From Schmidtea polychroa (taxonomy: Eukaryota): 64,000 nucleotides of DNA. The stretch spans positions 26,228,001 to 26,292,000 of the forward strand of contig CM097885.1 of the NCBI GenBank assembly GCA_044892525.1, read 5' to 3'. Positions 2,613 through 62,389 of this stretch are shown here, in pieces (within the stretch, counting starts at the first letter, position 1; each line of letters begins with the position of its first letter). Below the pieces are notes generated by a model, which saw only the letters and a program-made list of their open reading frames with translations, ran no database searches and was not told where the DNA came from. The position numbers were made by a program, and so were the translations under genes.

Positions 2613-2664
<52 letters not shown>

Positions 2665-2790
2665 TTTAAATTTAAAAATTTTCTTAATCACTTTTTTAAC
2701 ATTTGCATAAAACTTGTAAAAATTATTATGTTATTATGTTATTGAAATTATGAAAATGTTATGATGAAATTATGACGAAAATGAAGAAAA
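2071..2790 (+). repeat. Rearranged Maverick-derived remnant (copies of 22929-23226 and about 21900-22220)
   Basis: Near-identical blocks ttggagatgaactttcaagaccggga, catggccaatggcagtggc and gaggtaccaaaggagaaatcaaatatgg recur at 21.9-23.2 kb in a different order. Confidence 0.75.
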
Positions 2791-2909
2791 TTATGAAAAT
2801 GTACATAGTAGTCTGCAGTAAGCATGCAGCTACATATCTCTCTAATAATAATTATTATGATTACTCCAATAAATGTAGTTTGCAGTTAGCATGTAGCTAC
2901 ATATATCTC

Positions 2910-2949
<40 letters not shown>

Positions 2950-5925: not shown

Positions 5926-6149
5926 TTTAATAAAATTAGTCCTCATCAGACAAAATAACGTCATCGATATCGATATCATCTTCTCCAACATAATCTCCAA
6001 ATCTTCTTGATTAAATTCTTCCTCATCTTCTCCAACATTTTCATCAAATTCTTCTCCAACAATTTTTCCATCATTTCCATCAAATCCTTCTCCAACATTT
6101 TCATCAAATTCTTCTCCAACAATTTCTCCAATATTTAATTGACTTAATC

Positions 6150-9730: not shown

Positions 9731-10512
9731 GATAATGGATATAATAATAATAATGGTTGCAATAATATTGATGATGAAGATAATAATATTAACACCGGTG
9801 GTAATGGTGGTATCAACAGTAATAATACCGATAATAGCCAGTATACTATTAAACCTTCTACTAAAATCAATAATTATCGTAAAAAAATGTCTAATAATGT
9901 TGATATTATATTCGCCAATCCCTCCCCTGTTCACTGTGTTATTCTCCCATCGCGATATCGAATTTCTCCGCTTGATGAAACCACCTCCCTCTTCCTGCCT
10001 CTCTGCGACCAAAAGCCTGCATCGTGTGATCTTGACTACTCCCCCGCCTCATCCTTGACAGGGTGGATATACCTTCCTCTACACGCCCTCTCCCCGAACC
10101 CAGAGCACAGCTCAGGCCTCAGATTTTGATGACATCTTACTCTCCGACAACTCTACCACCTCCTCCCATGAGTCGATAACGGCAACTGCTCCCCACACCT
10201 CAACCCAAGCCCCCACAGCCCCTATAACCAACACCACACTAACATCGAAAGGAAAGGACGCTGCCCATGTAGACGAAGCGCCTATCCCCTCTGTCCTGTC
10301 TCGCGAACAAACGTCAAAGATCATCCCCTGACTCATGAACAACTGACCACATCACCTCCCTCTCGGGTAGGCGAGATTATCTCTTCGCTCATCAACGAAC
10401 TTCATGACCTTATTGCGGCTGACACCCAAATGAAAGTAAAGGGGAAAACTGTTCAAGTCATCACAGACCAAATACCTGTTAACACGCCCCCTACCTTACC
10501 CCACCACCCACT

Positions 10513-10860
10513 GTGAAGGTGCGCCAATCATGTACCCCGAGGAACATGAAGTCACAGGACGCGACTGACCCTACTCTATTTCGCCTGAACTATCGGGGAA
10601 AACTTGAATGCAGGTCGACGTTTATCACAGCTTGGTGCGGCAGCATCTGCATATTTGACAGAGCCAAATTCCTTGCTCACGCCCGGGAAGTCCACGATAT
10701 CGTAATCAGTGAAGACTCACACGTCGACTGCTACCAATGCAGACCCAAAGGGGGAAAGGACAGATTTGCGATGAACCATGTCAAATTCAAGGATCTTTAC
10801 AATCATGTTGACCATTGTGGGCATGAGGTTCAGATAGACAAGAAACTGATCAACAAGGTT
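10513..10860 (+). pseudogene. N-terminal zinc-finger-like region of the non-LTR element
   Basis: C...C...FLAHAREVH and CYQC...LYNHVDHCGH. Confidence 0.55.
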
Positions 10861-11201
10861 ACTCTTAGAATTGCTCCAACAGCCTTCTAACACACTCGCC
10901 AATAGCCTACTTGAAACCATCCTAGACCTTCAGAAAATTGTCTTACCCATATCCATTGACTTAATAGAACCCGAATACCCTCGCTGCAGTGTACCTGCAG
11001 ACTCAGCTTTCTTCATCTGTCACTTCATTGAACACCTCATCACGCGAAGCCCCCTCACCACACCTCACATTCCTTCTATGACTCTTGAACTTAAAACAAT
11101 TATTAATAATTATATTAAAAATAAAATACCAAATAATGATATACGTAAATATAAACAGTTTATAAAGAATATTATTTTTAATCTCATCGAAAACAAAACT
11201 G

Positions 11202-11870
11202 ATGCCGACTCTGCTATTTCCGAAATGGGAAAAAATAAATGCAAACATCCACCCTTTAAAATATACTACCAAAAAACCCTCTGACATAATACATAAAAAA
11301 ACCCGTAATGAGAACGAATTACTCTTCATTAAAAGGAAAAAATATACCATTAACCCAAAGGAGGAAGTCGCAAAGATCCTGAGAAATACCCCAACCTTCC
11401 AGAGACCTACTATGGATAATATTCATAAACTCTTTGCTGGAACACTCGCAAGTTGCTCGCCTAATCCTTTGATTGAACTACCCTCACTTCCCGAAACTCT
11501 CTCTTGCGACCCTTTCGACATCGATGAAATTAAGGCAATCTTCAAGCAACTCAGCAATACGACCCCAGGTATAGATGGCATCTCTCTATCTGACTGGAGA
11601 ATTCTATCCCCTGACTTTGAATTCCTTCTATCCTTGTTTAACAACCTACTACGCACAACTACTTGCCCTATGTCCTGGAAAACCTTTCGCTCCAAACTAA
11701 TTCTAAAAGCTGGAAAGACCGAGACTAGCATGAAGCTAGCGCCTGGAGACCCATATCTATCATGAACACCTCATACCGTATATTCTCCTCACTTCTAAAC
11801 AATCGCCTCTTGAGCTGGATAAAACTCGGCAACCTACTATCTATCAACCAAAAGGCTATATGTGCACCCG
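11202..11870 (+). pseudogene. Reverse transcriptase N-terminal subdomains (frameshifted; catalytic core absent)
   Basis: PGIDGI...WKTFRSKLILKAGK...WRPISIMNTSYRIFSSLLNNRL...NQKA; no YADD motif found anywhere downstream. Confidence 0.9.
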
Positions 11871-14800
11871 ATGAGAAATACCCCAACCTTCCAGAGACCT
11901 ACTATGGATAATATTCTTAAACTCTTTGCTGGAACACTCGCAAGTTGCTCGCCTAATCCTTTGATTGAACTACCCTCACTTCCATACCGTATATTCTCCT
12001 CACTTCTAAACAATCGCCTCTTGAGCTGGATAAAACTCGGCAACCTACTATCTATCAACCAAAAGGCTATATGTGCACCCGATGAGAAATACCCCAACCT
12101 TCCAGAGACCTACTATGGATAATATTCTTAAACTCTTTGCTGGAACACTCGCAAGTTGCTCGCCTAATCCTTTGATTGAACTACCCTCACTTCCAGAAAC
12201 TCGGCAACCTACTATCTATCAACCAAAAGGCTATATGTGCACCCGATGAGAAATACCCCAACCTTCCAGAGACCTACTATGGATAATATTCTTAAACTCT
12301 TTGCTGGAACACTCGCAAGTTGCTCGCCCAATCCTTTGATTGAACTACCCTCACTTCCATACCGTATATTCTCCTCACTTCTAAACAATCGCCTCTTGAG
12401 CTGGATAAAACTCGGCAACCTACTATCTATCAACCAAAAGGCTATATGTGCACCCGATGAGAAATACCCCAACCTTCCAGAGACCTACTATGGATAATAT
12501 TCTTAAACTCTTTGCTGGAACACTCGCAAGTTGCTCGCCTAATCCTTTGATTGAACTACCCTCACTTCCAGAAACTCGGCAACCTACTATCTATCAACCA
12601 AAAGGCTATATGTGCACCCGATGAGAAATACCCCAACCTTCCAGAGACCTACTATGGATAATATTCTTAAACTCTTTGCTGGAACACTCGCAAGTTGCTC
12701 GCCTAATCCTTTGATTGAACTACCCTCACTTCCATACCGTATATTCTCCTCACTTCTAAACAATCGCCTCTTGAGCTGGATAAAACTCGGCAACCTACTA
12801 TCTATCAACCAAAAGGCTATATGTGCACCCGATGAGAAATACCCCAACCTTCCAGAGACCTACTATGGATAATATTCTTAAACTCTTTGCTGGAACACTC
12901 GCAAGTTGCTCGCCTAATCCTTTGATTGAACTACCCTCACTTCCAGAAACTCGGCAACCTACTATCTATCAACCAAAAGGCTATATGTGCACCCGATGAG
13001 AAATACCCCAACCTTCCAGAGACCTACTATGGATAATATTCTTAAACTCTTTGCTGGAACACTCGCAAGTTGCTCGCCCAATCCTTTGATTGAACTACCC
13101 TCACTTCCATACCGTATATTCTCCTCACTTCTAAACAATCGCCTCTTGAGCTGGATAAAACTCGGCAACCTACTATCTATCAACCAAAAGGCTATATGTG
13201 CACCCGATGAGAAATACCCCAACCTTCCAGAGACCTACTATGGATAATATTCTTAAACTCTTTGCTGGAACACTCGCAAGTTGCTCGCCTAATCCTTTGA
13301 TTGAACTACCCTCACTTCCAGAAACTCGGCAACCTACTATCTATCAACCAAAAGGCTATATGTGCACCCGATGAGAAATACCCCAACCTTCCAGAGACCT
13401 ACTATGGATAATATTCTTAAACTCTTTGCTGGAACACTCGCAAGTTGCTCGCCTAATCCTTTGATTGAACTACCCTCACTTCCATACCGTATATTCTCCT
13501 CACTTCTAAACAATCGCCTCTTGAGCTGGATAAAACTCGGCAACCTACTATCTATCAACCAAAAGGCTATATGTGCACCCGATGAGAAATACCCCAACCT
13601 TCCAGAGACCTACTATGGATAATATTCTTAAACTCTTTGCTGGAACACTCGCAAGTTGCTCGCCTAATCCTTTGATTGAACTACCCTCACTTCCATACCG
13701 TATATTCTCCTCACTTCTAAACAATCGCCTCTTGAGCTGGATAAAACTCGGCAACCTACTATCTATCAACCAAAAGGCTATATGTGCACCCGATGAGAAA
13801 TACCCCAACCTTCCAGAGACCTACTATGGATAATATTCTTAAACTCTTTGCCGGAACACTCGCAAGTTGCTCGCCTAATCCTTTGATTGAACTACCCTCA
13901 CTTCCCGAAACTCTCTCTTGCGACCCTTTCGACATCGATGAAATTAAGGCAATCTTCAAGCAACTCAGCAATACGGCCCCAGGTATAGATGGCATCTCTC
14001 TATCTGACTGGAGAATTCTATCACCTGACTTTGAATTCCTTCTATCCTTGTTCAACAACCTACTACGCACAACTACTTGCCCTATGTCCTGGAAAACCTT
14101 TCGCTCCAAACTAATTCTAAAAGCTGGAAAGACCGAGACTAGCCATGAAGCTAGCGCCTGGAGACCCATATCTATCATGAACACCTCATACCGTATATTC
14201 TCCTCACTTCTAAACAATCGCCTCTTGAGCTGGATAAAACTCGGCAACCTACTATCTATCAACCAAAAGGCTATATGTGCACCCGATGAGAAATACCCCA
14301 ACCTTCCAGAGACCTACTATGGATAATATTCTTAAACTCTTTGCTGGAACACTCGCAAGTTGCTCGCCTAATCCTTTGATTGAACTACCCTCACTTCCAG
14401 AAACTCGGCAACCTACTATCTATCAACCAAAAGGCTATATGTGCACCCGATGAGAAATACCCCAACCTTCCAGAGACCTACTATGGATAATATTCTTAAA
14501 CTCTTTGCTGGAACACTCGCAAGTTGCTCGCCTAATCCTTTGATTGAACTACCCTCACTTCCAGAAACTCGGCAACCTACTATCTATCAACCAAAAGGCT
14601 ATATGTGCACCCGATGAGAAATACCCCAACCTTCCAGAGACCTACTATGGATAATATTCTTAAACTCTTTGCTGGAACACTCGCAAGTTGCTCGCCTAAT
14701 CCTTTGATTGAACTACCCTCACTTCCATACCGTATATTCTCCTCACTTCTAAACAATCGCCTCTTGAGCTGGATAAAACTCGGCAACCTACTATCTATCA

Positions 14801-15696
14801 ACCAAAAGGCTATATGTGCACCCGATGAGAAATACCCCAACCTTCCAGAGACCTACTATGGATAATATTCTTAAACTCTTTGCTGGAACACTCGCAAGTT
14901 GCTCGCCTAATCCTTTGATTGAACTACCCTCACTTCCATACCGTATATTCTCCTCACTTCTAAACAATCGCCTCTTGAGCTGGATAAAACTCGGCAACCT
15001 ACTATCTATCAACCAAAAGGCTATATGTGCACCCGATGAGAAATACCCCAACCTTCCAGAGACCTACTATGGATAATATTCTTAAACTCTTTGCCGGAAC
15101 ACTCGCAAGTTGCTCGCCTAATCCTTTGATTGAACTACCCTCACTTCCCGAAACTCTCTCTTGCGACCCTTTCGACATCGATGAAATTAAGGCAATCTTC
15201 AAGCAACTCAGCAATACGGCCCCAGGTATAGATGGCATCTCTCTATCTGACTGGAGAATTCTATCACCTGACTTTGAATTCCTTCTATCCTTGTTTAACA
15301 ACCTACTACGCACAACTACTTGCCCTATGTCCTGGAAAACCTTTCGCTCCAAACTAATTCTAAAAGCTGGAAAGACCGAGACTAGCCATGAAGCTAGCGC
15401 CTGGAGACCCATATCTATCATGAACACCTCATACCGTATATTCTCCTCACTTCTAAACAATCGCCTCTTGAGCTGGATAAAACTCGGCAACCTACTATCT
15501 ATCAACCAAAAGGCTATATGTGCACCCGATGAGAAATACCCCAACCTTCCAGAGACCTACTATGGATAATATTCTTAAACTCTTTGCTGGAACACTCGCA
15601 AGTTGCTCGCCTAATCCTTTGATTGAACTACCCTCACTTCCAGAAACTCGGCAACCTACTATCTATCAACCAAAAGGCTATATGTGCACCCGATGA
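11380..15696 (+). repeat. Higher-order tandem array built from RT coding sequence (493, 211 and 164 bp units)
   Basis: 18 units each starting tgagaaatacccc; order L,(M,S)x4,M,M,L,S,S,M,M,L,S; the ORF track shows 375, 211 and 1243 bp periods. Confidence 0.97.
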
Positions 15697-15739
15697 GTTG
15701 ATTTCACGTATAAGGTAAGGCACAACATTGAGGAGACTT

Positions 15740-17173
15740 GAAAATGCCTTAACTGATACCAAAACAATTCTAGCCTCCTATCTAGAAAACTAACTTGAAA
15801 ATGCCTTAACTGATACCAAAACAATTCTAGCCTCCTATCTGCACCCTGCTCAAAAACTCAATGCCTACAAAATTTTCATACATTCTCGCCTTACCTATAT
15901 CTACCGCAACTGCGAAATTCACCACAATATTCTCGACTCCGAAAGAAACCTTAAAAATAATGCAGGTATACCCCATAGAGGCGCCACCCAAAGACTAAAA
16001 TCTATAATCAAAAATGCCATTGGTGATAAAATTTGCGAGCTCAATAACAATTTCCTATACGCATCCATCAAACTTGGGGGACTGGGGTTAACATCCCTCA
16101 TTGATGAATACCTTATCCAGGGAATTGTCCACCTCATACGTGCCCTCAACTAAACTGACACTGATTTTCGCAACCTCGCCCTATCCGAACTCAGTCAAGC
16201 CAGAGGAAATGGCAACATCAACTCTGCAATCTCCTGGTTAAATGGCAACTCCACTAAAAACTTTCCATCTAAATCTCTCTTCTCGAAATTCAGGAAATCA
16301 TCCATAAGACTACGACTCAAATATGGCATCTCCACTAAAATAGTCTTCCTCAAAAATTCCTACCAATTAGAAATTAAATACAAAGACCGAATTAATTACT
16401 TCACATCCTCTAACCTTAAAGACACCTCATCCGAAATACACTCTATTATTAGCCTCATTTATGCTGATAGATGGTCCGAAATGAAATGCCAAGGACATAT
16501 AGTCAAAAGCATTGGTAGCAGTAGCATTGCTAGTTTCTTCTTTAAAACGGACATCCTAACTGACCCGCAATTTATCTTCCTGATCCGAGCACGCAACAAC
16601 ATCCTAAAATTAAACTATACGCCCCGTCGAATTAAATCCAAGAAATCTACCCTATGTAGGCATTGCCACGCCCATCCTGAAACACAGGCACACATATTTA
16701 ACCACTGCCCTGCTAAATCCAATGCCCGCCGAAACAAACATAGAAATGTCCTCCAAGCTGTCTCCGACTTCCTCCTCGAGCATAAATACGATATAGACAT
16801 CGAACAAACCCCAATGGGGATCAACACCACCCTCATCCCCGACCTCCTTATCAAAACCCCGCGGAACAAATTGATTCATATCCTGGACATAAAGGTCCCT
16901 TACGAAAGTGAAAAAAACTTTGAACAAGCTAGGAATAATAATTTTGAGAAATACAAACACCTAGCAATCGACATAGGTCATGCACACAACTGCAAGACCT
17001 CTCTACTTACCCTCGTTATTGATACACTCGGTACCTGGGACAGGAAGAATGACAAAGACCTCAGAATAATTGATCTGAGTAGAGCAGAAATTAAGGCTCT
17101 AGCAAAAAGAGCCTGTACAGCAGCCGTAGTCAGCAGCTACCTCATATATAGGGAACACATATACAAAGACTAA
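15740..17173 (+). pseudogene. RT thumb, CCHC zinc knuckle and restriction-like endonuclease (RLE)
   Basis: LHPAQKLNAY, KLGGLG, CRHC...ETQAHIFNHC, RRNKH, PDLL...DIKVPYE, KYKHL, GTW; ORF 16481..17173 is open, upstream part has a stop. Confidence 0.92.
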
Positions 17174-20517: not shown

Positions 20518-22017
20518 ATGAATAACCAAAATAATATTTTAAGAGCAATGTTGGCTGGAGAAAACAGTAAATTATTTTTTCTTTTATTTATTATTATTTT
20601 ATTCACATTTAGCTAATTTATGGTACGAAGTTACCGAAGCAGAAAATAATATGTAAGATGCCCCAATTATTATTAGTGACGATGATGATGGTAAATTTAA
20701 TTATTTATTAAATTATTAAAATTTAGATGAAATTAATCTTATGGAAAATAATGAACTTATTATTATAACCGATGATGAAGAAATCATTATTAGTGATGAC
20801 AGTGGTAAGTTTTATATTATTTATCAAATATATTTAAAAAGGAACTTCAGATAATGAAACAAATGTAGTTACAAATGAAGGAGTAGTTAATGATATCGTC
20901 GATGATGCCCCCACATATATTGAAAATGTCGTCAATGAATCTGATGCCTCCACCGCTATTGGGGATGCCCCTATTGGATGAATTAGAAGATGATTCTGAT
21001 TCCGATATGGAATGGAAATGTTAGGGGGGGTAGGGGTATGTCTTTGTCCCAGAGGGCCCGCTATCCCTCTACTACAATATAATGGATCATATACTGCTCA
21101 ATTTTCAAAAACTTTGGTGAAACATCATTGACTTTGTCGAAAAATACTGATTTTAGAGACACATATATTCAAGATTTCGATGATGCACCCACATATATTG
21201 GAAATGTCGTCAATGAATCTGATGCCTCCACATTTATTGCAAATGCAGTCGATGATTCTGATGCCCCCATCGCTATTGGGGATGCCCCTATTGGATGAAT
21301 TAGAAGATGATTCTGATTCCGATATGGAATGGAAATGTTAGGGGGGGTAGGGGTATGTCTTTGTCCCAGAGGGCCCGCTATCCCTCTACTACAATATAAT
21401 GGATCATATACTGCTCAATTTTCAAAAACTTTGGTGAAACATCATTGACTTTGTCGAAAAATACTGATTTTAGAGACATATATTCAAGATTTCGATGATG
21501 CCCCCACATATATTGGAAATGTCGTCAATGAATCTGATGCCTCCACATTTATTGCAAATGCAGTCGATGATTCTGATGCCCCACCGCTATTGGGGATGCC
21601 CCTATGCGGGATGAATTAGAAGATGATTCTGATTATGGAATGGATCTGTGTTGATATAAATGTATATTGAAATATAGAAAGTTGTTATGGAGTAAGTTGT
21701 TTTTTATACTGTTTAATTTATTAAAGTAGTTCTGTTCAGGTCAATAAATGCGGTAAACAGATATTGGGAAATGGATTTATAGTTAGTGTAAGAAATTTAT
21801 TTTATTTTTGTATATTATTTTTAAAAAAACATTTAGAGTTTAATGTGGACTTAGATGACGAATCCAATAATGATCTTTTAAATACGGGAAATGCTCTCAC
21901 TTGTATTGAGGAGGTACCAAAGGAGAAATCAAATATGGAAAATGCCCTCAGTTCTAATGAGGATGATAATGTCCTCTCTGAGGATGATTCTGATTCCGAC
22001 ATGGAATCACAATGTAA
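20518..22017 (+). pseudogene. Multi-exon acidic poly-SIM-like gene, copy A (rearranged)
   Basis: MNNQNNILRAMLAGEN|NLWYEVTE...*DAPIIISDDDD|...LIIITDDEEIIISDDS|...DSDSDMESQ with GT-AG micro-introns; one stop and internal duplications. Confidence 0.65.
21021..21073. mobile_element. Maverick-type terminus remnant (duplicated at 21338-21390)
   Basis: G-run then tatgt...gggcccgctatccctctact; the reverse complement starts AGTAGAGGG and has a C-run, like the termini at 38292 and 48719. Confidence 0.55.
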
Positions 22018-23106
22018 GTATTTATTTATTTATTTATATATATATATTTTTTAAATTTAAAAATTTTCTTAATCACTTTTTTAACATTTGCATAAAACTT
22101 TTATGTTATTATGTTATTGAAATTATGAATATAATGAAGAAAATGATGATGAAATTATGATGAAAATGAAGAAAATTATGAAAATGTTATAATGAAGTTA
22201 TTATGACGAAAATGAAGAAAATTTTAATTAATGGAATCACCAGATTAAATAATAAAATTGACATATTTAGGAAGCGGATGGGGGGGGGTAGGTAAAATCA
22301 AAGAGATAGATTTTATCCTAACTAAATATACTCACATGAATAGGCTAGTATAAAATTTAATTTATTTTATTTATTATATTGAATTTATTTGTAAAGGCTG
22401 ACAGCTAGAGGTTTCAAAATTCCAATTAAATTTATTTATTTTTCTTAATTACTTGTATTCTTTATAAACCGTTTCTGGAGACTCATTTATTTTATATCAT
22501 CCTATATTCGTATTTGTCCCAGTAATTACCATCCGCCCATTCCTGTTTCACTCGAAATATGTCAATTTTTGACAACCTAAACATATCAAATATATCAATT
22601 ACAAATCTTGTTAGGTAATTTTTAAATGAGAGTTTTAATAAAATATTTATTCAGAATGTCGAATACCCAAATGGTTCAAAGGTTTCCATGCGATATTGAT
22701 GATAATATGGAGATAAATTTAATGAATCTCAAAGCCCAATATCAGGATCAAGTCAATTATCAGCAGCCAATCATATCATCAGCAACGCCAATGATTAGGG
22801 GGACACGGTCGCATCAGCCAATAAAATAAACTTGGTGTCCGTGAAGAGCATCCCAACAAATATTGATCTGGAATCCAATTGCAGGTGTCCAAAATCAATT
22901 TGACAAAGGAAACGATTACGGAGATTTCTTGGAGATGAACTTTCAAGACCGGGAGGTAAATAGTCGTTCAATATATCGGCACTCTGTAAAAAGATATGAA
23001 TTGGGTGATGTGAATCGGCACGCACTATTGCTGATTTCCAAACAATTTGGTGAAAATAGCAGCTGTGAAGACGACGAGGAGGATGAAGAGGTACTGTAAC
23101 CTGCAC

Positions 23107-23875
23107 ATGGCCAATGGCAGTGGCATGGAAGCTTATATTGAATCAATTCATGGGAGTCCAGTAGCAATCGCATCTTCATCAAGCTATTTAGTAAGCCCAC
23201 CGGGACCAAGGGATAATCTCATCCGAGTTGTCATGGTGACTGATGAAGGCAACAACCTAGTCTGGCGAATTGATATATTCAAGGCAACAGACCAACCAAC
23301 AAAATGGGTAAAAATTCAATTCACTGTCGTCATCCAGTTCGAGAAAGAAGGGGAAATTAGAGATAATTTTTTCTCTTATAGCAACGAAGTTTTTACAGAA
23401 AATTTGTTTAATGAATGGAATCACCAGATTAAATAATAAAATAGAAAAATTTACGTATTTAGGGAGCTGATGGCGGGTAGTTAAGATCAAAGAGATAGAT
23501 ACACATTTGAATAGGCTAGCTGGTCATAGTTATATCCCCACACCATCAGCATTAATCCCAAAAAGAGCTATAGTAAACGTCAAAAACAACGACGATATGT
23601 GCTTTACATATAGCATTTTAGCACTGTTAAAACGCGATGTTATACGTCGTCATAGAAATCGTGTTACGACATATGAAAATTATTTAGGTGAACTGAATTT
23701 TGACCCTATAAGTGATTGTCCCATGAAATTATGTGATATCCCCAAATTCGAGAGGAAAAATAAGGAATTAAATTTGGCAATTAATGTATTAACCTATAGG
23801 AAAAAACCAGCTAAGCCTATAGAAAACGATGACAGCTTCTATATTCACCATCATCCTCATTTAGATATTATGCAA
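23107..23875 (+). pseudogene. Maverick pPolB N-terminal region
   Basis: GS*W...AGHSYIPTP...KRAIVNVKNNDDMCFTYSILA...IPKFERKN...INV, typical of the Polinton PolB N-terminus; contains stops. Confidence 0.85.
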
Positions 23876-25661
23876 TCAAAGCCAGACACTGTTTTTCACA
23901 TGTTATCGTCATTGAATTTGAATAAAGAATACGCTATATTCATTCGGAATTAACATTGATTAGAGTTTGTTAATTATTAAATGGGAATAATATAAATATG
24001 TTTTTAATGCTATGTAGTAATTGAATAATTGGAATATTTTTAAAAAAAATATTTTAAGCACAAATTAATAAGTCGAAACAAACAAATATTATTGCGAACC
24101 CAATCAGAGCTTTAAAGTATTATTTTTACGGAGACACTGCAACATAGATAAGGATACGAAGATTATTTTATTGGATCTGTAAGCGAGAAACGAAAATCCT
24201 ATAAGAACAAAAAAAAGAACTTTCAGAGAATTACTAATGACAACACACTCAAAAATATTAGACATAATAATAATATATTCAACCTATGATTTTATTTATG
24301 CTCAAAAAGCAGTAGATGAATAAAAGACCCGATCCTATTAATATCAACGAAGTGAATAATGTCAGGTATTCCATTTGCACAATATATAATTTGAAAACTT
24401 TCTATGAAAACACGCTAACTTTGTCAATGAAATTTCATGGGACTCTTATCACATGTTTTATCGACAGACTTGATTCAAAGACCTCAATTACTCATGACAG
24501 AAACAACAATTTATTGCTGCGTCTGGTGATGAAATACTTCCAACCAAATATATGCAGATTACAACTCAATGGTGGAGCGCATGTACTAAGCCGAGTAGTG
24601 ACTAGTCAGAGACTTTCCCATGCGATATTGACAACGCGATACGAGAAATTAATAATGTTAGAAATAATAATAGTGATATCTTCAACCCTTGAATCCTAGG
24701 AAAACAATCAGTTATGTTAAATCTGAAAGTGCCACATCACTTGAGGTCCTTGTATCCATTTTTGGATTACCCAGCAAATATACGAGAAATTAATAATAAT
24801 AACTTCAAATAATATTCCCATAATAATAATTATAATATTATTCCCACTATAAATAATAAAAGAAAAACTAGTTTACAAATACCCAAACCCTTTTAATTTA
24901 TTAAAAAGATTTCATCTTTATTTCAGACTTCGATAATTAATTCTTACTACTACTAATAATAATACAATTGACTCAACTTTTAATGAATATATTAATTACC
25001 AACATGGTGGTTCACTTGTGTAGTGCCTCCGCTTTATTCTTCGCATTATATTATATTTAGTTTAATTTTTGTAAAATTAATTATTTTTTTCATCACTTTT
25101 ACTATATACCTAAAATTTTAAACATAAAATACTCAAACCTATAAAATGTCAAGAAATATTCAAGGAAACCAAAACGGAAACGGAGTCAAGAATGGTAACA
25201 TTTGTTAATTTATTTATCATACAGGGAGCCAAATCTGGAAACCTGGCCTTTAGACTGTTCAATTGTATCATTCCTATTACCAAATTACAGAACGACCTTC
25301 CGAATGCCAACTCCATCGCGGACTTTGAACTGATAACAATCGGGATAACGTTTTGAGTGTTGTAATTGTTATTCCACATCATATGTAATGCCAATCTTTC
25401 ACCCGATACAACTAGCACCCAACAACCAGCCTCCCCATATCGAACATCGACCGTCCCGAATCAGTCACTGGTATACAACTGTCAACATCCAGTGCTTAGA
25501 TGGCCTGATCATCGTAGATGCCACGACAAAAATCAACTCATTTGTTAAACCACGTTTGATTGCTATGTAAAATCTTTTTATTATGAAGGGTTAAGAAGTT
25601 CTCCCATTACGCCTTATTTGGCCTGTAATGTTATAAACCTTAAAAAAACATTTTCCAAACA

Positions 25662-27068: not shown

Positions 27069-27492
27069 ATGGACGCAGAATTAAACAATATTTTGAATGC
27101 CATGTTGAATGGCGAAAATGGTAAATTATTTATTTATTATTATTTATTATTTTAGAGAATTTATGGTTTCAAGTTACAGAAAACATTTATAATCGGGAAA
27201 GTATTATTATTAGTGATGATGATACGAGTAAATTTATTTTATAAATTTAAAAATTCAATTTAGGTGATTGCGAAATCATTGAAAATGATGACAAGAATGG
27301 AACCTGTAAAATAATAGATGATATTGAAAATGATGTCACCAAATCACGTAAATTTATTTTATTTATTAGAAAATTTAGAATATGTTGTTATTAGCGATGA
27401 TGATGCTCCAGCTCATGCTCCGGTTAATGCCCTATCATATACTGAGGAAGTCCTCCCTGATGAGGAATCTGATTCCGACTACGAATCACAAT
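27069..27492 (+). CDS. Multi-exon acidic poly-SIM-like gene, copy B
   Basis: MDAELNNILNAMLNGEN|ENLWFQVTE...SIIISDDDT|DCEIIE...|YVVISDDD...SDSDYESQ| with GT-AG micro-introns; may contain a frameshift. Confidence 0.65.
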
Positions 27493-27766
27493 GTAAGATT
27501 CTATTTATTTTTATATTTTGTTTTTTAAAATTTTTTTAATAACATTTTTTTTAAAGATTTATTATTAACATTTGTAATTAATTAAAAATTTCTTAATAAC
27601 TTTTTAATATTTGTAAAATATTATGAAAATGATGAAAATGAAGAAAATGATGAAATTATGAAAATGATATATGATGAAATTATTATTTTATTTATTTTAT
27701 AAATGTTAAAAAGTTTTTAGGAAATTATAGTTATAAAATAGTCCTTGTAGTTTGCAATGAGCATCT

Positions 27767-27799
<33 letters not shown>

Positions 27800-28036
27800 T
27801 ATCTTGTGGTCTGCAGTCAGCATTATTATTATTATTATAATTGACCCATTAAATGTAGTCTGCAGTCAGAATGCAGCTACATCACTCTAAAATATAATAA
27901 TAAATATACTTATAATAATGTTCAAAGTAGTTTACAACTATCTTTGAACATAAAGAATATTATAGAGTATTATTGTTAATGGTTATTAGTCAATCCTTTT
28001 TTTATAATTATCTAATCATAAAAATAGACTAACTAA

Positions 28037-29030
28037 TTGCAAGTAGATGAAGCTACTGATGTTATTAAGGATGCACACGTGATAATATATGTAAGATATG
28101 TTGTTGAAACCGATATTAAAGAAGACATGTTGTTCTGCAAACCTATTGAATTTAATACTACAGCAAAGGAAGTTTTTAAAATCATTGATATTTTTTTAAA
28201 GAAAATGGTATTCTACAGGAGAACTGTGTTGGGCTATGCACAGATGGAGATCCATCCATGGCTGGAAAAAACGCTGGTCTACAGGCTCTAGTTCGAAAGG
28301 TGGCTCCTCGTGCAGTTTGGACACATTGCATGATTCATAGACAAGCACTTGTATCAAAAAATATGAATGAAGATCTCCTCACAGTATTTGAAATTGTTAC
28401 AAGAGTTGTAAATTTTATTAAAAATAGCCCGTTAAGAGCAAGGATTTTTGCAAAATTGTATGATAACATGGGTTCAGAATATAGATCACTTCTATACTAT
28501 TGTGAGGTACGATGGCTTTCACGTGCTAAAGTACTTCAAAGGGTGTTTGAGCTAAAAGATGAAATCGCTACATTTCTAAGTGATAATAATAGAGATGAAG
28601 CACATTTGTTTTTTGATATGAAATTCGTTGTTAAACTTGCGTATTTAGTTGATATTTTTCAAAAACTTAGTATTTTAAACAAATCAATGCAAGGGGCTCA
28701 ATTATATACTTTTACGCAGAAAGACAAGATCACTGCATTTATCAAAAAAATAGAACTGTGGATATTATGTTTAAAAAATAATAACTTTGACATGTTTTTA
28801 ACTTTTAAACTTACCTGTCTCACTGAAGAAATAGAAGTAAAATTTTTATTAACAATCATTTGACAAGTTTACAGAAGCAATTTTCGTTGTACTTTAAGGA
28901 TTTAGACATGTCCAAATATGAATGGATTAGAAATCCATTTATGATTGAGGAATATAATGATTTTAAACTTACGACAGCAGAACAGGAAATGATTATTGAT
29001 TTATCTAGTAATAGCACATTAAAGCAGATT
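28037..29030 (+). pseudogene. hAT (Buster/Charlie, ZBED5/FAM200-like) transposase fragment
   Basis: QVDEATD, YVRY, EDMLFC, CTDG..SMAGK, THCMIHRQAL, CEVRWLSR, LAYLVDIF, WIRNPF; frameshifts; short copy at about 7980-8040. Confidence 0.92.
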
Positions 29031-38291: not shown

Positions 38292-38690
38292 AGTAGATGG
38301 ATTGGGCACCGCTGGCACAGGGCACCCCTAGCACAGTACCCCCCCCCCCCCCCCCGCCGTAAAATTAAAAAAAAATTTTCAAGGTCAAATTTTAAACAAA
38401 GACATATGACTCATCCGATGACTCATCAAATTTCTCAAGGTCATTTAAACAAAGACCATGACTCATCCTATGACTCATCAAGGCCATTTTCAAGGTCATA
38501 TGACTCATAACATGACTCATCAAGGACATTTTTAAGGTCATATATTTATTATTATTTTTAAAAAATATTATTTTTTTATTTTTAATTTGTTCAAAGTTCC
38601 CGCCAACGAAAATTATTCATCGATAGCTCATTTTAAAGCTCAATCCAAGACCTTTCGAATGAGCCATATATCCTGTTATTAAGATTATTA
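38292..38690 (+). repeat. Left TIR of the Maverick
   Basis: Blocks reverse-complementary to 48570-48719 and 47990-48070, e.g. caaattttaaacaaagacatatgactcatc and caatccaagacctttcgaatgag. Confidence 0.85.
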
Positions 38691-38700
38691 TTTCTAAAGA

Positions 38701-38851
<151 letters not shown>

Positions 38852-39159
38852 CTATATACTCCGAGTCTATCCGACAAATTATTTTGTCCCCCTATGGGTA
38901 ATGCACACAAGGGTACTGCTCACGCTCAACAACTCACAAGGGTATTATTAAACAAATCAACATTGTATTATTATTATTATTATTATTAATATTATTATTA
39001 TTATTAATCTATATACTCCGAGTCTTTCCGACAAAATATTTTGTCCCCCTATGGGTACTGCTCACGCTCAACAACTCGCAAATCAACAAATCAACAAAAC
39101 ATACATTTATTTAAACAATAAAATAATGTTAAATTAACAAAGGTAAACTAAATATTGAT

Positions 39160-39813
39160 TTACATGTATATAGTATGATATTCATTAATCAGTGTTGAAC
39201 AGGCTTGACACTTGCGAACATTCTTCTCGTGACACTTAGAACAAACAATTACGTGACCACATGGTAAATACAAAACCGAAACTCGATTTTCTTTACAAAT
39301 TGAACAAGTTAAATACCTTTTCTTAACATCGTTCAGTTTTTTCGTTAGCTTATTTTCAATCAAATCAGCTTTTGCTATCCATTCATAAATCAATCCACTA
39401 TATCCCGGTTTCAACCTTAAATACATACAACTCCAAAAGTATTCATTCAGTGAATCGTTGTTTACCGATATTTTTTCTAAGTACATTAAATAACTAGATA
39501 ACTTTAAAATGGATTTATCATAATTAAATAAATCAATCAAATATTCAATAGAGGAATGTTTGAAAATCTTTAAAATATTTATGATTTGCTTATCACTGTA
39601 AGTATCATGATTATTTATAAAATCTTCAACTGTGTTGTTAAAAAATTTCAATGAACGCTTATCTTCGGAATAGGTTGGACTTAATTTTTCCTTATTTCTA
39701 GTAGGACTTCCTTGCTATAAATGACACATATATAAAAAATATTGACAAAATAATAAAGTTACCAAATGTGTTTTATGATTTACACATTCAACAGTTTTAT
39801 TTGTAGAAATCAT
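39160..39813 (-). CDS. Spliced C3HC4 RING-finger protein (IAP/MDM2-type C-terminal RING), 201 aa
   Basis: Exon 39813-39763, 48-nt GT-AG intron, exon 39714-39160 in frame; CSIC...LYLPCGHVIVCSKC...CQAC; no BIR domain seen. Confidence 0.85.
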
Positions 39814-40290: not shown

Positions 40291-40610
40291 GTCATTATTA
40301 TAGTCATTGATATAGCTGCATGCTCACTGCAGACTATATAAAAATCACCATTAAATACTTATAAAAATTATAATAAAACAACAAACCAAATACTTGAAAA
40401 AATTAAAAAAAAAATCTGGTTACAAATTTTTATTCAATATGTATATATATATAAATACAAGTTTTATTCAATATACAAGTTATAATACAAGTTATAAATA
40501 CAAGTTTTTTATACAAGTTTTTGTAAATCAAAATAAAAGTTTCTATACAATTTTCACAATTTTCAGTTGTCCTATTTAAATTTTAATCCTATTTAATTTT
40601 CATCTCCCAG

Positions 40611-42438: not shown

Positions 42439-42903
42439 TTAATTAAGTGATAATAAAAAATCTAAAAATTCATTTCCTTCAATTATTGATTTAATTTCAG
42501 ATATGATATTATCAACTATACATTTGTAATCAATATTTTTTATTCCAAGAATTACTATCTTACCGCTAGCGAATATATTTACACACATAGGGTTATATTT
42601 TATATATCTCAAAGCTGGAAATAATTCTGGTTCATAAAAGCATGGTATTAATTTAGCCAATTCATTTAAATTACAAGAAAAACCTATATCAGAAGTTACG
42701 GTTATCGATTGTATTTCTAAATCATAAACATTATATTCACTAGCTTTGATTATTTCCTTACACCCCATAACTCTACATTTACCAGTTTTGAAATATATTA
42801 TTGGATATTTTTTACTTCTATTGATGAGTTGTTGTGGTTTCCCCATTGGAAATACCATTTTTGATACATCAGCTTTTGCCCTGTAATTTATATTTGAAAG
42901 CAT
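42439..42903 (-). CDS. TATA-binding protein (TBP)-like protein, copy 1
   Basis: SNIN, YFKTGKCRVMGCK, EIQSITVTSD, YEPELFPAL and IFASGKIVILGIK match TBP core repeats; intact and intronless. Confidence 0.88.
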   Translation of the reverse strand: MLSNINYRAKADVSKMVFPMGKPQQLINRSKKYPIIYFKTGKCRVMGCKEIIKASEYNVYDLEIQSITVTSDIGFSCNLNELAKLIPCFYEPELFPALRYIKYNPMCVNIFASGKIVILGIKNIDYKCIVDNIISEIKSIIEGNEFLDFLLSLN

Positions 42904-42960
42904 TTTAATGAAATAATTATAAAAACTCTGCTATATATATATATCCTTTTTAAAATAACT

Positions 42961-43017: not shown

Positions 43018-46000
43018 GGTGGGTCGAATGTTAATAAATTTTGAGTTCAAGAAAGGAAACATGGTTAAAAAGTTGTATTTTGGTATAGAAAAATCGAATC
43101 AAACCATTTTACTTAGATTTATAGACATTTACTGCTCCCAACTTTTCTCCGAAAATGCAGTTCAACATAAGTGTGAAAACAATGTAATTTGGCTAGTGTC
43201 GGAATGTGTTTTGCGCCTTTGTTCATATTTAGATGTAGCTTTCTTAAGAGCTTATAAGTATATTATTTACTCTCTTGGGCTGAGATAGTATATTCTGTGT
43301 CCTCATCCCACATTGAAATATATCCTGACAACGTCAGTGATTAGGAAGGGCCAAATTTGAATTATCCTTTTCAAAGACAAAAATCAACTTTCGAAATTAT
43401 TTTTTATTAAAAACATCCAGCCAAAAGTTTAGAAATGTATTAGCGAGGGCATAAAAAGAAGTCACATGAAATCAGCTTTGCTTTGCACCTTGGGCAATTC
43501 CTTCCTTGATTTTTTACACAGTAGTACCATACCATGTCTGGACTTGTGACCAAACACTTTGCAACTGGCAGAAGAAACATCTTTGATGGCTCTTTCAACG
43601 GCTTGAGAATGACAGGGAAATTGTTCTAATGTAATTTTCTTATTCATCTTCAATTCATGATCCAATATATGAGATAAAAGAGGGGGAGGCGTCAAATTAC
43701 ATTTTGTCCAGTCAATCATGTCAACATATGATGTAGCAGACGACTGAAGAAAGACAGTATTCTTGTCCATAGTGCGAATCACTTCGGAAGGGAGAAAATT
43801 TTGTCTTGCAGTTATGATTTTTTCTGTTGTAAGCTTTCTGATTTCTTCATCATCATCACCAACAGCAGCTAGGAGTATATTTTCTGGATGTGAGAAGTAA
43901 TTGTTGTTCTGAATGACAGGAAAGATGATTTCTTGGTCTGATGGATCCAAATCCTGCAGAAGTTGGAGCATATAAAAAATATTTCTTGCACCATCTTGGC
44001 ATGACGAGTGAGTCTTTATATAAAACCATGACGGTCCATAGAAATTGACAATAAATTTCACTATTCGCATGAGAGGTTCAGATGGAGCAGTTTCGGACAT
44101 ATATAGTCGCAGAATTCTATTAGCTTTCGTTAGCCAGCGACTGTGATTCAAATTTCCTGGTTGTGCCATTTGTAGAAAAGGGACATCCTTGTTGTTGTGG
44201 TACCCTTTCTGGACTGCCAAGCATACTCTGAGGAAATACAATTGATCAGTGTTCAATTCTTTCTTGACATTTTCACTAATATCTACGACCTTTCCAGGAA
44301 GGGACATAAAGGCTACTACGGGCTTGTCTTTTGGATCAAAATCAAGAACGCTTCCTATTTCACCACATGACGTTTTTGGACCTTTTGTTTCTCCACCATC
44401 GACGACTGAAAAATACTTCCTGAATGGCAATTCATTTGCATGCAACAAGCATATCAGCCATTTTAGAGGTCGCCCTAGGCTTTTTTCGAGTCTTCTGATT
44501 ATTCCATTATTTTTTCCGGTGTTTGTATTGGTTCCATCGCACACAATTGCTTGAAGGGTCAGTGAGGACTGCGTGCTAACGATGATTGACATGATTTCTT
44601 TGCCAATATCCACAGCTTTACTACTTTGAGGTACAACATGATCGATATATGTATCCCCTGGAAAGGCGACAATCACATAATGCTCCTCTTTTAGGATCCT
44701 TCTATGAAGTAAGGTGGAATCTTGTTTCCCGTCGAAACCGAGGCAAATCAAGTTTTTCGCTTCTGCTGAATGCTGTTCAATTTCTCTCTCCCTCCAGTAC
44801 TTTCTCTGACGCCGTAATTTTGCGGGATCGATGATTGTTTGAGAGGATAACAGTTCCATATCTTTCAGAAAAGCGTTTACTAGCAAACACGTGTCTCTGT
44901 TGCTCACACCACATCTGTCAACAGCTTTACTTAATTCAGGATAATGTCTTCTATTTTGAAATTCATCACATTCTTCTACGCTTGACTCTGAGCTTTCTGT
45001 TGAATTGTCTAACTTATCTTTACTTTCATCACTAGCGGCTTCACTCTCCGTGTCACTTCTTGAGGTCGGATGTGTTCATTATTTCATTTTTCATTTGTTT
45101 TCCTTTTCCAGTAGGGCTGCTTTTCGTTTGATTTCTCTTCAATTTTGAGGTTTCCTGTCTGTCCGTATTTCCGATTTTCATGTTTCTGGTAGTTTGTTGG
45201 TCAATCCAGAACTCCCACTCTAAGGTAGGAATTTTCAAGGCCAATCGGCATGTACACTGACTTCTTCCACGAGCACCATCATTAAAATATTTGCAGCAAC
45301 ATATGTCAAACAATTTGGAAAACGAGCTTAACTTATCTTGAAATTTGGCAGATGACCTCTTGCATTCTGGATACTTCTCTAATTCACGCACTTTTGATAT
45401 TAGTCGCTTGACACGAACCACAATACTACTGAACTCAACAGTTGGGATACTTGCCTTCATATAAATTTCCTTCACCTTATTTGCGAGAAGAGTTGCTTGT
45501 TCGTTAAAGCCAGTATGAAATTGCGTACATTTCTCATTGTAACAGTAATCACGAAACACATCTTCACAAGTAGGTAATTGGTTTCTGGGTAGTTCACAAG
45601 TTTGACCAAACAGACAATGACGTGATTTACTTCTTGTTTTGCGAAATTGCTTATTTCTCTGTCCCTTCATAACTGCTCTTCTGTACTCAGCTCTGGCAAA
45701 ATAAAAGTGAATCATCAAGTTAACTTTTTTAATTAGGTCCAGCAAACACTTGACATCCAATCGAAACAAATTAAATTATCTGAGTTTAGACTGACTAGTT
45801 GTATCCATGTGGATTATGTGTTGACTTTAGTGTGTGTGTTAGTATTGTTCAGAAGAAATTGTCTTTGTGAGTGCTTGTGTGAAGGTGCTTCCGTGAATTA
45901 ACCTCTCTATACATGCACGAGTTAGCTCGGACTTGTGAATAGAGCATGTCAAAAATGGTCTTTCTGCAAGCGTGTGACTGCTTGCAGGATGAATTTACAA

Positions 46001-46169
46001 TGGCACGTGTGCGAGCATTTTTACTGGGATAGTACTAATACATACAAACAAAAGTTGGGACCTGTAGACCCTTTTAAACAGCAGTCTTTTGCAGGGATAT
46101 TTCATTTTCTAGCATAAGCACAACTTTTTAGGCATGTTTGGAGAAAAAAAAAATTTTCAACCCACCCTA
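43015..46169 (-). mobile_element. hATm-type DNA transposon, near full length
   Basis: TIR TAGGGTGGGTCGAA / TTCAACCCACCCTA (1 mismatch); inserted in a (TA)n tract giving an ATATATAT flank on both sides. Confidence 0.9.
43462..45769 (-). pseudogene. hATm transposase (apparently one frameshift near 45060-45110)
   Basis: LFDICCCK, DRCGVSNR, GFDGKQD, CDGTNTNTG, CLLHANELPFR, HSRWLT, HPEN, PCHSQAVER. Confidence 0.88.
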
Positions 46170-46250
46170 ATATATATATATAGTTATTTTAAAAAGGAGT
46201 TCATTTAAATTATCAATATAAACAATAATTATATAGTTTAAATTTAAAAA

Positions 46251-47192: not shown

Positions 47193-47736
47193 ATGTCAAG
47201 CAACAATATTTTACGAGGTCTTTTGACAACTGGTAAATTATTATTTTTATTATTCTATTTAATTATTTTTATTTAGATTCTTTTGACTGGTTCGAAGTAA
47301 CCGAGGATGAGACGATATTGTATGTGGATCGAATTTTTGGTAAATTTATTATTTTAATTTTTATGAAATTAATTTTGTTTTTAGAACCGATTACAATTAG
47401 TGACGATGATGATGTCGTGTTTATTGGGCAAACTGATGCCCCTAATGTAAGAGAAAATGATGCTGAAAGTAAATTTATTTTATTTTTGTATATTATTTTT
47501 AAAAAAAAATCATTTAGAGTTTAATGTGGACTTGGATAATGAATTATTTAATGGTGGAAATGCCATCAGTTCTAATGAGGAGGTAGCAGAAAATGTCATC
47601 AATTCTAATGAGGAGATAGCAGAAAATGCCCTCAGTTCTAATGAGGAGGTAGCAGAAAATGTCATCAGTTCTAATGAGGAGATAGCAGAAAATGAAAATG
47701 GCCTCTCTGAGAATGATTCCGACGAGGAATCACAAT
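47193..47736 (+). CDS. Multi-exon acidic poly-SIM-like gene, copy C (inside the Maverick)
   Basis: MSSNNILRGLLTT|DSFDWFEVTE...|EPITISDDDDVVFIG...|FNVDLD...(SNEE.AEN)x4...DSDEESQ| with phase-1 GT-AG introns. Confidence 0.7.
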
Positions 47737-47768
47737 GTAAGCCTTTATTTATTTTTATATTTCTTAAA

Positions 47769-47801
<33 letters not shown>

Positions 47802-47932
47802 TATAATAATAATAATAATATTAATAATAATAATAATAATACTATATCTTGTAGTCTGCAGTCAGCATGCAGCTACATATCTCTTTTATTATGATTTCCC
47901 CAATAAAGCTACATGACAATAATAATAATAAT

Positions 47933-47978
<46 letters not shown>

Positions 47979-47989
47979 TTAATAATAAT

Positions 47990-48719
47990 GATATATGTCT
48001 CATTCGAAAGGTCTTGGATTGGGCTTCAAATTAAGATATCGATGAATAATTGTCGTTGACGGGAACTCTATAAATTTAAATTTTTAAATATGACCTTGAA
48101 AAAATAAATGACCTTGAAAAAATAAATGACCTTGGAAAAATAAATGACCTTGAAAAAATAAATGACCTTGAAAAAATAAATGACCTTGAAAAAATAAATG
48201 ACCTTGAAAAAATAAATGACCTTGAAAAATAATATTTTGAAAAAATAAATGACCTTGAAAATGGTCTCGGGAAAACGTTAATAACTTTGCCAATGATAAT
48301 GATGATGATACCTTCAATAGCTCATTTGAAAGGTCTTGCACTAAGCTTTAAAAAAAGCTATCGATATTTGGTAAAATGTTAATAACTTTGTCAATATTAA
48401 TGATGATTATACTTTCAATAGCTCATTCGAAAGGTCTTGGATTGGGCTTCAAATTAAAATAAATTCGGATAATGGGAACGCTAACTTTTGGGCAAACGAA
48501 AACCAGGAGCCCGCTAGAACACTTAATAATATTTTTGAAAATAATAATAATATTTTAAAAAATAATAATATGACCTTGATGAGTCATATGTCTTTGTTTA
48601 AAATTTGACATTGAAAAAAAAAGACCTTGACCTTTTATTTAAAAAAAAATTTTTTTCCCGGGGGGGGGGTATATGTGTTCCAGCGGGCTCCTGTTCTAGC
48701 GGGCTCCCTTCCATCTACT
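47990..48719 (-). repeat. Right TIR of the Maverick, including an 18-bp tandem repeat (48090-48260)
   Basis: Inverted match to 38292-38690; about 9 copies of aaaaaataaatgaccttg. Confidence 0.85.
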
Positions 48720-57664: not shown

Positions 57665-58249
57665 TTAAATTTTCGCACAAGTTAAACTAAGTGTAGGATT
57701 TGATCTTGTTAATTTAATTTGAACACTAACACCTGGTAGTAAATATTTAGGTTGATCAAAGAAATCAAATTGAAGTGGGGAACATAAAGAAAAGGATTTT
57801 GATTTTTCAATCCATGTTTTTCTCGTAAGATCATTGTTAGTATACCCCATTCCACCTAAAGAAGTTCGTTTAGTATTTCCGTCATAATTTATAAGTGTTT
57901 CAATTAATGCTTTGTGGGCAAATCGATCATTTGATCCTTCAACTTTGATTGAATTAAAAATTAATTCAACATCTTAAAAAAGGGTTTGGAAGAAAAAATA
58001 TTTTGGAATTACTTCTGATTCGCCTAAATTCTCACCTAAATTATTAACAACTTTCAATTGAATATATAACAAAGTATCATTCAAATCTAAATATTCAGTC
58101 TGCGATCCGTTTATGTAAAATTGAATCGAAGAAGAACCAGCATATGTAATAGAATTTCTTGGGTATATATCTTGAAATGCTCCATGTTCAATCACTGCTT
58201 GGGGAGAAGGTCTATCAAAAAGACATAATTCTGATTAAGCACTAATCAT
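57665..58249 (-). pseudogene. Maverick major capsid protein (PY/hexon), N-terminal fragment
   Basis: SELCLFDRP.PQ..IE...IQFYING...YLDLNDTLL...TLF...ALIETLINY...KYLLPGV; stops; truncated. Confidence 0.88.
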
Positions 58250-58644
58250 TTTTCAAAGATGGTACCATATCCTTTCATTCTTTTGTTTATATGTTTCTTC
58301 ATAATTTTTCGGCGTTTAAGTATTCCGCCTTTTTGTTCTTTATCATTTTTAAATACATCGGATACTTTATTAATTACTTCTGGTAAATGTTGCATCACAG
58401 CTGGTAATGATTCTTTAATTTCAGAAATTGCATTTGATTTTAAAGCAGGCAAGATATTTGCATTGTTATTTATTACGTCATTAACTGTTTTCATACCAAA
58501 ATTTCCTATTCGTCTAAGAATTGGGAGTGCAAATCTACCTATTGTCTTCAACCAATCGGTTCCATATTGTTTACCAACAAAATATGGTAAATCACCACCC
58601 GATTGGTTACTACTATAAAAATGTATTAAGTCAGGATTAGTCAT
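58246..58644 (-). CDS. Maverick PW-like virion core/membrane-active protein
   Basis: QSGG...FVGKQYG...IGRFALPIL, basic C-terminus; located between penton and hexon. Confidence 0.7.
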   Translation of the reverse strand: MTNPDLIHFYSSNQSGGDLPYFVGKQYGTDWLKTIGRFALPILRRIGNFGMKTVNDVINNNANILPALKSNAISEIKESLPAVMQHLPEVINKVSDVFKNDKEQKGGILKRRKIMKKHINKRMKGYGTIFEK

Positions 58645-61853: not shown

Positions 61854-61903
61854 TTTTTAATTAAATTATTTTATTTAATTTGTTTATAATTACAATAATT
61901 AGA

Positions 61904-62389
61904 ATGATCAGCAACATTAATTATAGAGGAAGATGTGCAGTTAATGGAATGAAGTTCCAATCAGGAAAACCTCAACATGTTGTGGATAGAAGTGGAAAAT
62001 ATCCAATTTTATTCTTCAAGAGCGGGAAATGTAGGATAATGGGATGTAAGAAACCATTACAGGAAGGCGATCTCAAATATCAGATTCAAGATTTACAAAT
62101 CCAATCAATTACATTAACGTTAGATATGGTTACATGTATTGATTTAAATGCATTGTCAAGGAAAACCGATAGTTACTACGAGCCTGAAATATTTCCAGCT
62201 TTACGTATTCTCCAGTATAACCCCCTATGTGTAAATGTTTTTTCAAGCGGGAAAGTTGTTATATTAGGGATTAAAACATTTGATTATTTTAATCAAATTC
62301 AAGAAATTCAGAAATTCATTATCATGCAGAAATCATTAACTATAAATATCACAACAAATGAAGAAATATTGGAATATTTATTAAGTTAA
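61904..62389 (+). CDS. TBP-like protein, copy 2
   Basis: MISNINYR, FFKSGKCRIMGCK, QIQSIT, YEPEIFPAL, VFSSGKVVILGIK; intact. Confidence 0.88.
   Translation: MISNINYRGRCAVNGMKFQSGKPQHVVDRSGKYPILFFKSGKCRIMGCKKPLQEGDLKYQIQDLQIQSITLTLDMVTCIDLNALSRKTDSYYEPEIFPALRILQYNPLCVNVFSSGKVVILGIKTFDYFNQIQEIQKFIIMQKSLTINITTNEEILEYLLS

Follow-up and report, generated by a model that had tools for sequence, protein, structure and literature searches.

A probable spliced acidic leader, with predicted SUMO-interacting motifs, of a Maverick polymerase gene (pPolB)

Four small exons at positions 47193-47736 of the 64-kb window (the whole stretch of DNA analysed, which is AT-rich, eukaryotic and crowded with mobile-element remains) probably represent the 5′ leader of a gene for pPolB, the protein-primed DNA polymerase of the virus-like Maverick (Polinton) transposons; the leader carries predicted SUMO-interacting motifs (SIMs), and the polymerase body has been deleted from this copy. 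The gene structure taken by itself, exons forming the 5′ leader of a Maverick pPolB, is very probable in our judgment; that SUMO binding is the main activity of the leader is a prediction towards which we lean. What is new are RNA-type joints for two short introns, a chain leading from the leader to the terminal protein, and a probable deletion that would explain this copy, referred to below as copy C.

Copy C consists of four forward-strand exons separated by GT-AG introns of 44, 45 and 49 nt, all in phase 1, and its spliced frame of 135 codons is stop-free, with 27% Asp+Glu. Exon 1 (47193-47232) begins with an ATG and encodes an NNIL..LL motif predicted to be amphipathic. Exon 2 (47277-47339) encodes W-F-E-V-T, of which W..VT is common to copies A, B and C. 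Beyond intron 2 (47340-47384, 45 nt, GT-AG), exon 3 (47385-47468) holds overlapping matches to two SIM patterns, SIM-a (PITISDD) and SIM-r (DDDVVFI). Exon 4 (47518-47736) is acidic, includes an internal repeat of 66 bp and closes with a phase-1 donor. The open frames are to be read with the knowledge that acceptors were picked to preserve the frame: 3 of 16 acceptor chains leave copy C open, and 14 of 45 leave copy B open.

The ten short introns are uniform: they measure 31-49 nt, contain 6-17% G+C, have GTAA[AG] donors without exception and TTTAG acceptors in nine cases, and are in phase 1 wherever the phase is readable (9/9). Five sequencing runs out of twelve (X1, X2, X3, X7 and X8) were compared; none is recorded as RNA, and the RNA label of X1 is a guess. 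One contig of X1, the probable RNA run, skips intron 2 exactly, from GT to AG, at a depth of 5.9 and with a short side of 29 letters. In a second, 30 letters, of which 27 agree with the end of exon 1 (identity counted by eye), are joined straight to exon 2. Both spliced contigs come from this one run and derive from relatives, not from copy C itself. Introns 1 and 2 are removed, in what is probably RNA, in close relatives of copy C, which supports the short introns directly, though thinly. The junction check proposed in the preliminary description thus turned out positive for introns 1 and 2 in X1, but neither joint is listed for X2 or for the DNA-like run X3; X7 gave no cover, and unspliced contigs also occur in X1 and X2. 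For X3, 3192 matching contigs were compared, and their summed depth is not a copy number; contigs in the thousands point to a large family. One further X1 contig (depth 5.4) returns from 47446 to 47336 across six intervening letters, which hints at a relative in which the exon-3 unit is repeated.

The window contains several relatives of copy C. ATG starts lie at 20518, 27069 and 47193, and 2481-2606 holds a piece of a last exon, as the preliminary description had reported in speaking of three diverged copies with an additional last exon. Over the first 60 residues, copies A, B and C give pair scores of 123, 83 and 60 against maxima of 62, 68 and 55 in 2000 shuffles, and since all three pairs beat every shuffle, the N-termini are homologous. 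The motifs said to be shared, NNIL..L and W[FY][EQ]VTE, do recur in all three copies, in the form NNIL..[ML]L and W[FY][EQ]VT. Copy A (exons 1-3, 20518-20804, forward strand) carries three relaxed SIM-like motifs and is disrupted by an in-frame stop in exon 2 and by a 317-bp tandem duplication further on. Copy B (27069-27492, forward) has four exons, 107 open codons and introns of 35, 36 and 31 nt. The last leader exon of copy A′ (21837-22013, forward) is orthologous to exon 4 of copy C, 21793-21963 matching 47471-47647; the third intron of copy C is likewise clearly orthologous to its A′ counterpart. Of the last acidic leader exon, copy D retains the 3′ portion (2481-2606, forward), in which 39 of 41 residues are the same as in the A′ exon. 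D and A′ are partly duplicates of one another and therefore not independent, so that there are fewer than three independent cases of a leader continuing into pPolB. A host gene family was dropped as an explanation, since all four copies lie on Maverick-derived sequence, and so was membership of the PIAS proteins, no such domain being present in the 107-135 residues.

It is the 3′ end of the leader that ties it to the polymerase. The last exons of all four copies end in GAATCACAAT|GTAAG, one common donor (CAAT|GTAAG). Position 47736, previously taken for the end of the gene, is therefore where exon 4 stops at a phase-1 donor common to all copies. Reading through this donor yields divergent AT-rich tails of differing lengths, unrelated beyond intron-like AT runs, and meets a stop 16-54 codons after ESQ. 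In copy D, the donor is followed by a putative long intron (2607-3708, forward, 1102 nt, GT-AG; donor GTAAGC, acceptor ...TTAACAG) and by a broken main pPolB exon (3709-4585, forward). The phase of the donor sets the frame for about 245 codons, through a Cys-rich piece, a Thr/Asn-rich linker, a QIGG site at 4164 and a terminal-protein-like region; the exon reaches the start of vOTU, with three in-frame stops (read as X) and a frameshift before that point. Donor and acceptor, both phase 1, place leader and main exon in one frame. Residues 94-146 of a full-length pPolB, P0122, match 4426-4584 (tblastn, E 1e-6).

The second case is A′, where most of the long intron is deleted and terminal-protein and vOTU pieces follow at 22216-23953 on the forward strand (22216-22348 and 23308-23953). 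The deletion joint (2790 to 4427) also stands in DNA run X3. Residues 101-260 of P0122 match 23426-23872 with 43% identity (E 9e-26). The vOTU piece 23474-23950 finds three proteins among 135 candidates, P0122 (1223 aa) with E 2.8e-19, and P0122 also matches the pfam03175 polymerase body of the window (49% over 570 residues). Terminal-protein/vOTU sequence begins at two places in the window, both 3′ of a same-strand leader exon. In copy B, the long intron (27493-28037, forward) breaks off some 90 nt ahead of where D has its acceptor, and its segment 27909-28037 shows 91% identity over 129 nt to 3494-3617 of D, near the acceptor. No terminal-protein/vOTU homology lies 3′ of B or C, both of which are truncated. 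Taken together, the four copies all resemble fragments of pPolB genes from Mavericks, and the link to Mavericks is stronger than had been proposed. Only copy D keeps both ends of the long intron, and the tie of copy C itself to pPolB is indirect.

From these sequence features we infer the long splice from leader to main exon; its joint is not among the listed joints of X1, X2, X3 and X8, where repeats at 2605-2676 beside the donor were skipped. The first 200 residues of P0122-P0124 contain neither a SIM-like motif nor QxGG, but these are single-frame proteins that would miss upstream exons. Scans for related loci with the vOTU piece, P0122, the polymerase body or, in viral contigs, alignment A1 found no locus; two metagenome loci both start within the frame of the polymerase, so that its 5′ end is missing from them. 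Within the window, 7975-8039 and 28016-28080 are identical over 65 nt; the identity spans the junction of the copy B intron with a transposase-like remnant (a label given by eye) and adjoins the 5′ break of the polymerase body.

The exons had been interpreted as encoding a stand-alone protein, a poly-SUMO sponge or adaptor. Such a protein, made from a separate gene or from a short isoform polyadenylated within a kept long intron, could account for the fact that B and C are open across all four exons though their pPolB bodies are gone, and it would find its stop in the 16-54 codons past ESQ, its polyadenylation signal in an AATAAA at about 47902 and its transcripts among the unspliced contigs of X1 and X2. 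However, none of the copies shows a conserved stop or C-terminus of its own; the read-through tails are unrelated, and D and A′ run on into pPolB. Copy C moreover has a single two-way site, and traps with two SIMs are described as binding poly-SUMO poorly compared with traps of eight (PMC3631770). We consider a stand-alone SIM protein very improbable and retain the reading of the exons as a likely pPolB leader, which in D and A′ continues into terminal-protein/vOTU sequence.

If so, why does copy C lack a polymerase? The element that contains it spans 38292 (AGTAGATGG) to 48719 (CATCTACT), and the earlier placement of copy C inside a Maverick, beside its terminal inverted repeat (TIR), proved correct. 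The left TIR (38292-38858) starts with AGTAGATGG and has an (ATT)n tract at its inner end; the right TIR (47936-48719) ends with ...CATCTACT and matches the left one in 205 of 244 aligned columns; the ends are of the form AGT...ACT. A 6-bp target-site duplication is absent at the repeats (flanks AACGAT versus TCAGCC); the two ends might stem from different elements, or one flank might have been lost by deletion. Between the repeats lie an ATPase piece with Walker motifs, a TBP-like gene and a RING gene. A polymerase body was not found there, nor an integrase among the frames scanned. Behind the donor of copy C, whose context is like that in B, A′ and D, the 5′ remnant of the long intron (47737-47977, forward) ends in an (AAT)n tract (47936-47977) that coincides with the inner edge of the right TIR. 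This remnant of about 240 nt has a 76% match to 2808-2949 of the D intron, partly via a repeat-like motif; the non-AAT part of the match is a motif also present, reversed, at 40310-40340. The simplest reading is that a deletion between two AAT tracts removed the polymerase body of copy C, and it is because of this deletion that copy C would now adjoin the right TIR. Copy C as it stands is a dead fragment.

Several other features of this element were noted. The short motif stands beside (AAT)n tracts at 2808, 27747-27870 and 47851, in the long introns, and reversed at 40310-40340, upstream of the RING gene, and may constitute a small repeat in its own right. The RING gene (39160-39714, reverse strand) is of the C3HC4 type and seems to have an upstream exon past an (ATT)n-rich intron. 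TBP-like genes occur in both Maverick families of the window (42439-42930, reverse, and 61865-62389, forward; Pfam PF00352, 133 relatives). A TATAAACA box lies at 46217, 33 nt before the ATPase start, and at 20452, 66 nt before the ATG of copy A; within 200 nt upstream of B or C it is absent.

What, then, might the leader do? We scored it with SIM-a and SIM-r patterns taken from two published descriptions (PMC5825156 and PMC3631770). Copy C has a single two-way site, PITISDDDDVVFI, in which SIM-a and SIM-r overlap. Under the strict patterns C matches both, A has one match of each kind and B none. The two SIM-a matches compare with a null mean of 0.20 (P 0.016) and the two SIM-r matches with a null of about 0.2 (P 0.020). 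A relaxed motif matches six times (three in A, two in B and the one two-way site in C) against a null mean of 0.15, a count reached in 0 of 20000 shuffles; the P value is overstated, as the pattern was composed after viewing the sequences and the copies are homologous. In six frames of the 64 kb, six of its nine matches fall within leader exons. The bare four-residue hydrophobic core is not enriched (3 matches, null mean 5.4, P 0.91). The resemblance to the SIM consensus noticed earlier is real, and strict matches exceed shuffles, but DCEII, one of the quoted motifs, fits no tested pattern and B has no strict match. Similarly, the motifs quoted as a hydrophobic core plus acidic tract are present, but not every small exon carries one. 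The last exon of copy C (72 residues) has zero SIM matches, so that a protein "made of" tandem motifs is not an apt description of a copy with one two-way site.

The number of SIM-like motifs does differ among copies, as had been suggested; its proposed origin by exon duplication is possible, being allowed by the all-phase-1 layout. Nucleotide likeness among the SIM-bearing exons, however, is confined to about 17-28 nt around the motif, and two of the motifs in A share one exon.

An acidic leader may also be a fast-drifting spacer that has no ligand and whose motif repeats arose by slippage of GAT/ATT-rich DNA. The 27% Asp+Glu, the low complexity, the free changes in length and motif codons that are AT-rich triplet runs all accord with this, as does the lack of any homolog among 1.84 billion representatives. 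In these searches the frame running from exon 2 through intron 2 to exon 3 (63 aa) was found in 0 of 15 candidates and in none of the 1.84 billion representatives and had no usable Atlas match; the exon 4 frames belong to no Pfam family. The short motifs, on the other hand, remain constant although the intervening sequence diverges. Among 8 variant sites in contigs of the X runs, the SIM contains two, both synonymous; W..VT contains none, and exon 4 contains two, each of which alters the amino acid; synonymous-only changes in the SIM suggest constraint, to the extent that eight sites, a very small sample, can. A similar motif also occurs in the second Maverick family: at 5940-6204 (reverse strand), the acidic tail of that family's polymerase body, after a frame change, ends in a SIM-like DVILSDED-stop (about 5959). 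A spacer of this kind is, in our view, quite improbable.

The gene structure could be the same and the ligand a different one. The most invariant motif of the leader is W..V, found with equal spacing in 3/3 copies against a null mean of 0.15. Proteins of the Atg8 family are bound through [WFY]xx[LIV], and coactivators through the LxxLL box. The leader could then be an acidic docking or activation arm, in which W-x-x-V binds the PH domain of TFIIH p62 (or an Atg8-family protein) and the N-terminal L..LL helix binds a coactivator. There is a precedent in XPC, whose Trp133 and Val136, spaced like W..V and set in an acidic string, are reported to bind the p62 PH domain (PMC10345426), and the element family has its own TBP-like gene. 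Yet acidity just ahead of the Trp is modest in A and B, and the general [WFY]xx[ILV] pattern shows no enrichment (P 0.24). An arm for p62 would also leave I-x-I-S-D-D as a repeated unit unexplained. We regard this alternative as unlikely and take SUMO binding as the predicted activity in what follows.

Transcripts of an intact element would lose the short phase-1 introns and the single long intron by splicing and encode one polyprotein, which would begin with the acidic leader and continue with the Cys-rich module, the linker, the QxGG site and the terminal protein, followed by vOTU, exonuclease and polymerase. A cysteine protease would cleave it at QIGG. The leader may dock freshly synthesised polymerase, at the DNA of the element, on nuclear proteins carrying SUMO and, once cleaved off, may compete with SUMO-dependent repressors there. 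QxGG resembles the C-terminus of SUMO itself. The putative cleavage site, QIGG|S, departs from the adenain rule, (M/I/L)XGG-X or (M/I/L)XGX-G; adenain is described as structurally related to the SUMO protease Ulp1 (PMC7464072). QxGG has 11 six-frame matches in the window, two of them in a small Maverick frame (58246-58644, reverse), where it is a candidate recognition word for the protease of the element. The effect of the leader on silencing could go either way. A bolder scheme, which we rate as distinctly unlikely, would have a Maverick polymerase with a detachable N-terminal arm that combines tandem SIMs with a zinc module. Released at QxGG, this arm would act, alone or with the RING protein of the element, as a remover of SUMO-dependent silencing on the DNA of the element itself, in the manner of ICP0 or RNF4, and symmetric phase-1 micro-exons would let the number of SIMs be adjusted as element and host evolve against each other.

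Comparison with known systems helps to place the leader. The pPolB of Maverick/Polinton elements (Alpha adintovirus) is described as containing terminal-protein, vOTU, exonuclease and palm domains (PMC11071308, Krupovic et al. 2024; PMC8502044, Starrett et al. 2021). The terminal-protein-like and vOTU sequences found here after the leader follow this expected order, and the repeats are of the AGT...ACT type; the difference is a spliced, acidic, SIM-like leader ahead of the terminal protein. The words "intron", "zinc" and "SUMO" are absent from the main text of PMC11071308, and spliceosomal introns in pPolB likewise go unmentioned in the main text of a survey of nematodes (10.1101/2023.08.22.554363). 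The short introns of the leader depart from the intron-free gene as given for vertebrate Mavericks, intact ones being reported to have no introns (PMC8097293). Dinoflagellate Maverick-like proviruses, according to the published account (PMC11957031), contain introners and so share spliceosomal introns with the present element, but introners are inserted intron-making transposons, whereas the introns here are of host type, 31-49 nt and AT-rich, in a conserved multi-exon leader.

The likeness to the multi-SIM proteins RNF4 and RNF111 as described in PMC3631770 consists of a hydrophobic core plus an acidic tract, with up to three close motifs in copy A. In contrast to those proteins, no RING was found on the same chain, copy C has its one two-way site and the leader is part of a polymerase polyprotein. 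The Cys-rich piece of copy D (43 residues, from a degraded copy) belongs to no Pfam family, has no Atlas match and shows no RING likeness (E 0.87 against the RING of the element); since it did not score as a RING, the comparison with RNF4 is one of motif likeness only. Viral proteins offer a functional parallel: HSV-1 ICP0, which is STUbL-like, is described as removing SUMO-modified proteins, and the SIM of KSHV LANA as recruiting a repressor (PMC12434695). What is shared is a predicted contact between a protein of a nuclear DNA virus and chromatin factors that carry SUMO, but ICP0 and LANA are separate regulatory proteins, whereas here the motifs lie in a polymerase leader. As the LANA SIM recruits a repressor, a SIM need not mean anti-silencing.

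In the mainly open-access literature covered, we found no Polinton paper with a SUMO-interacting motif and, by title or start of abstract, no spliced or SIM-bearing pPolB leader. Maverick polymerases are annotated from single open frames, an approach that would overlook a spliced N-terminal arm. Should the arm bind SUMO, it would provide a testable tie between replication of the element and SUMO-dependent chromatin silencing, on which we found no paper.

Two further features of the window deserve mention. The element with copy C bears an insertion of about 3 kb (43040-46140) with a 537-codon frame that is transposase-like by eye and has no Pfam match. At 10500-16150, a near-perfect tandem array of 375-bp units (211 + 164) stands before a reverse-transcriptase zinc-binding frame.
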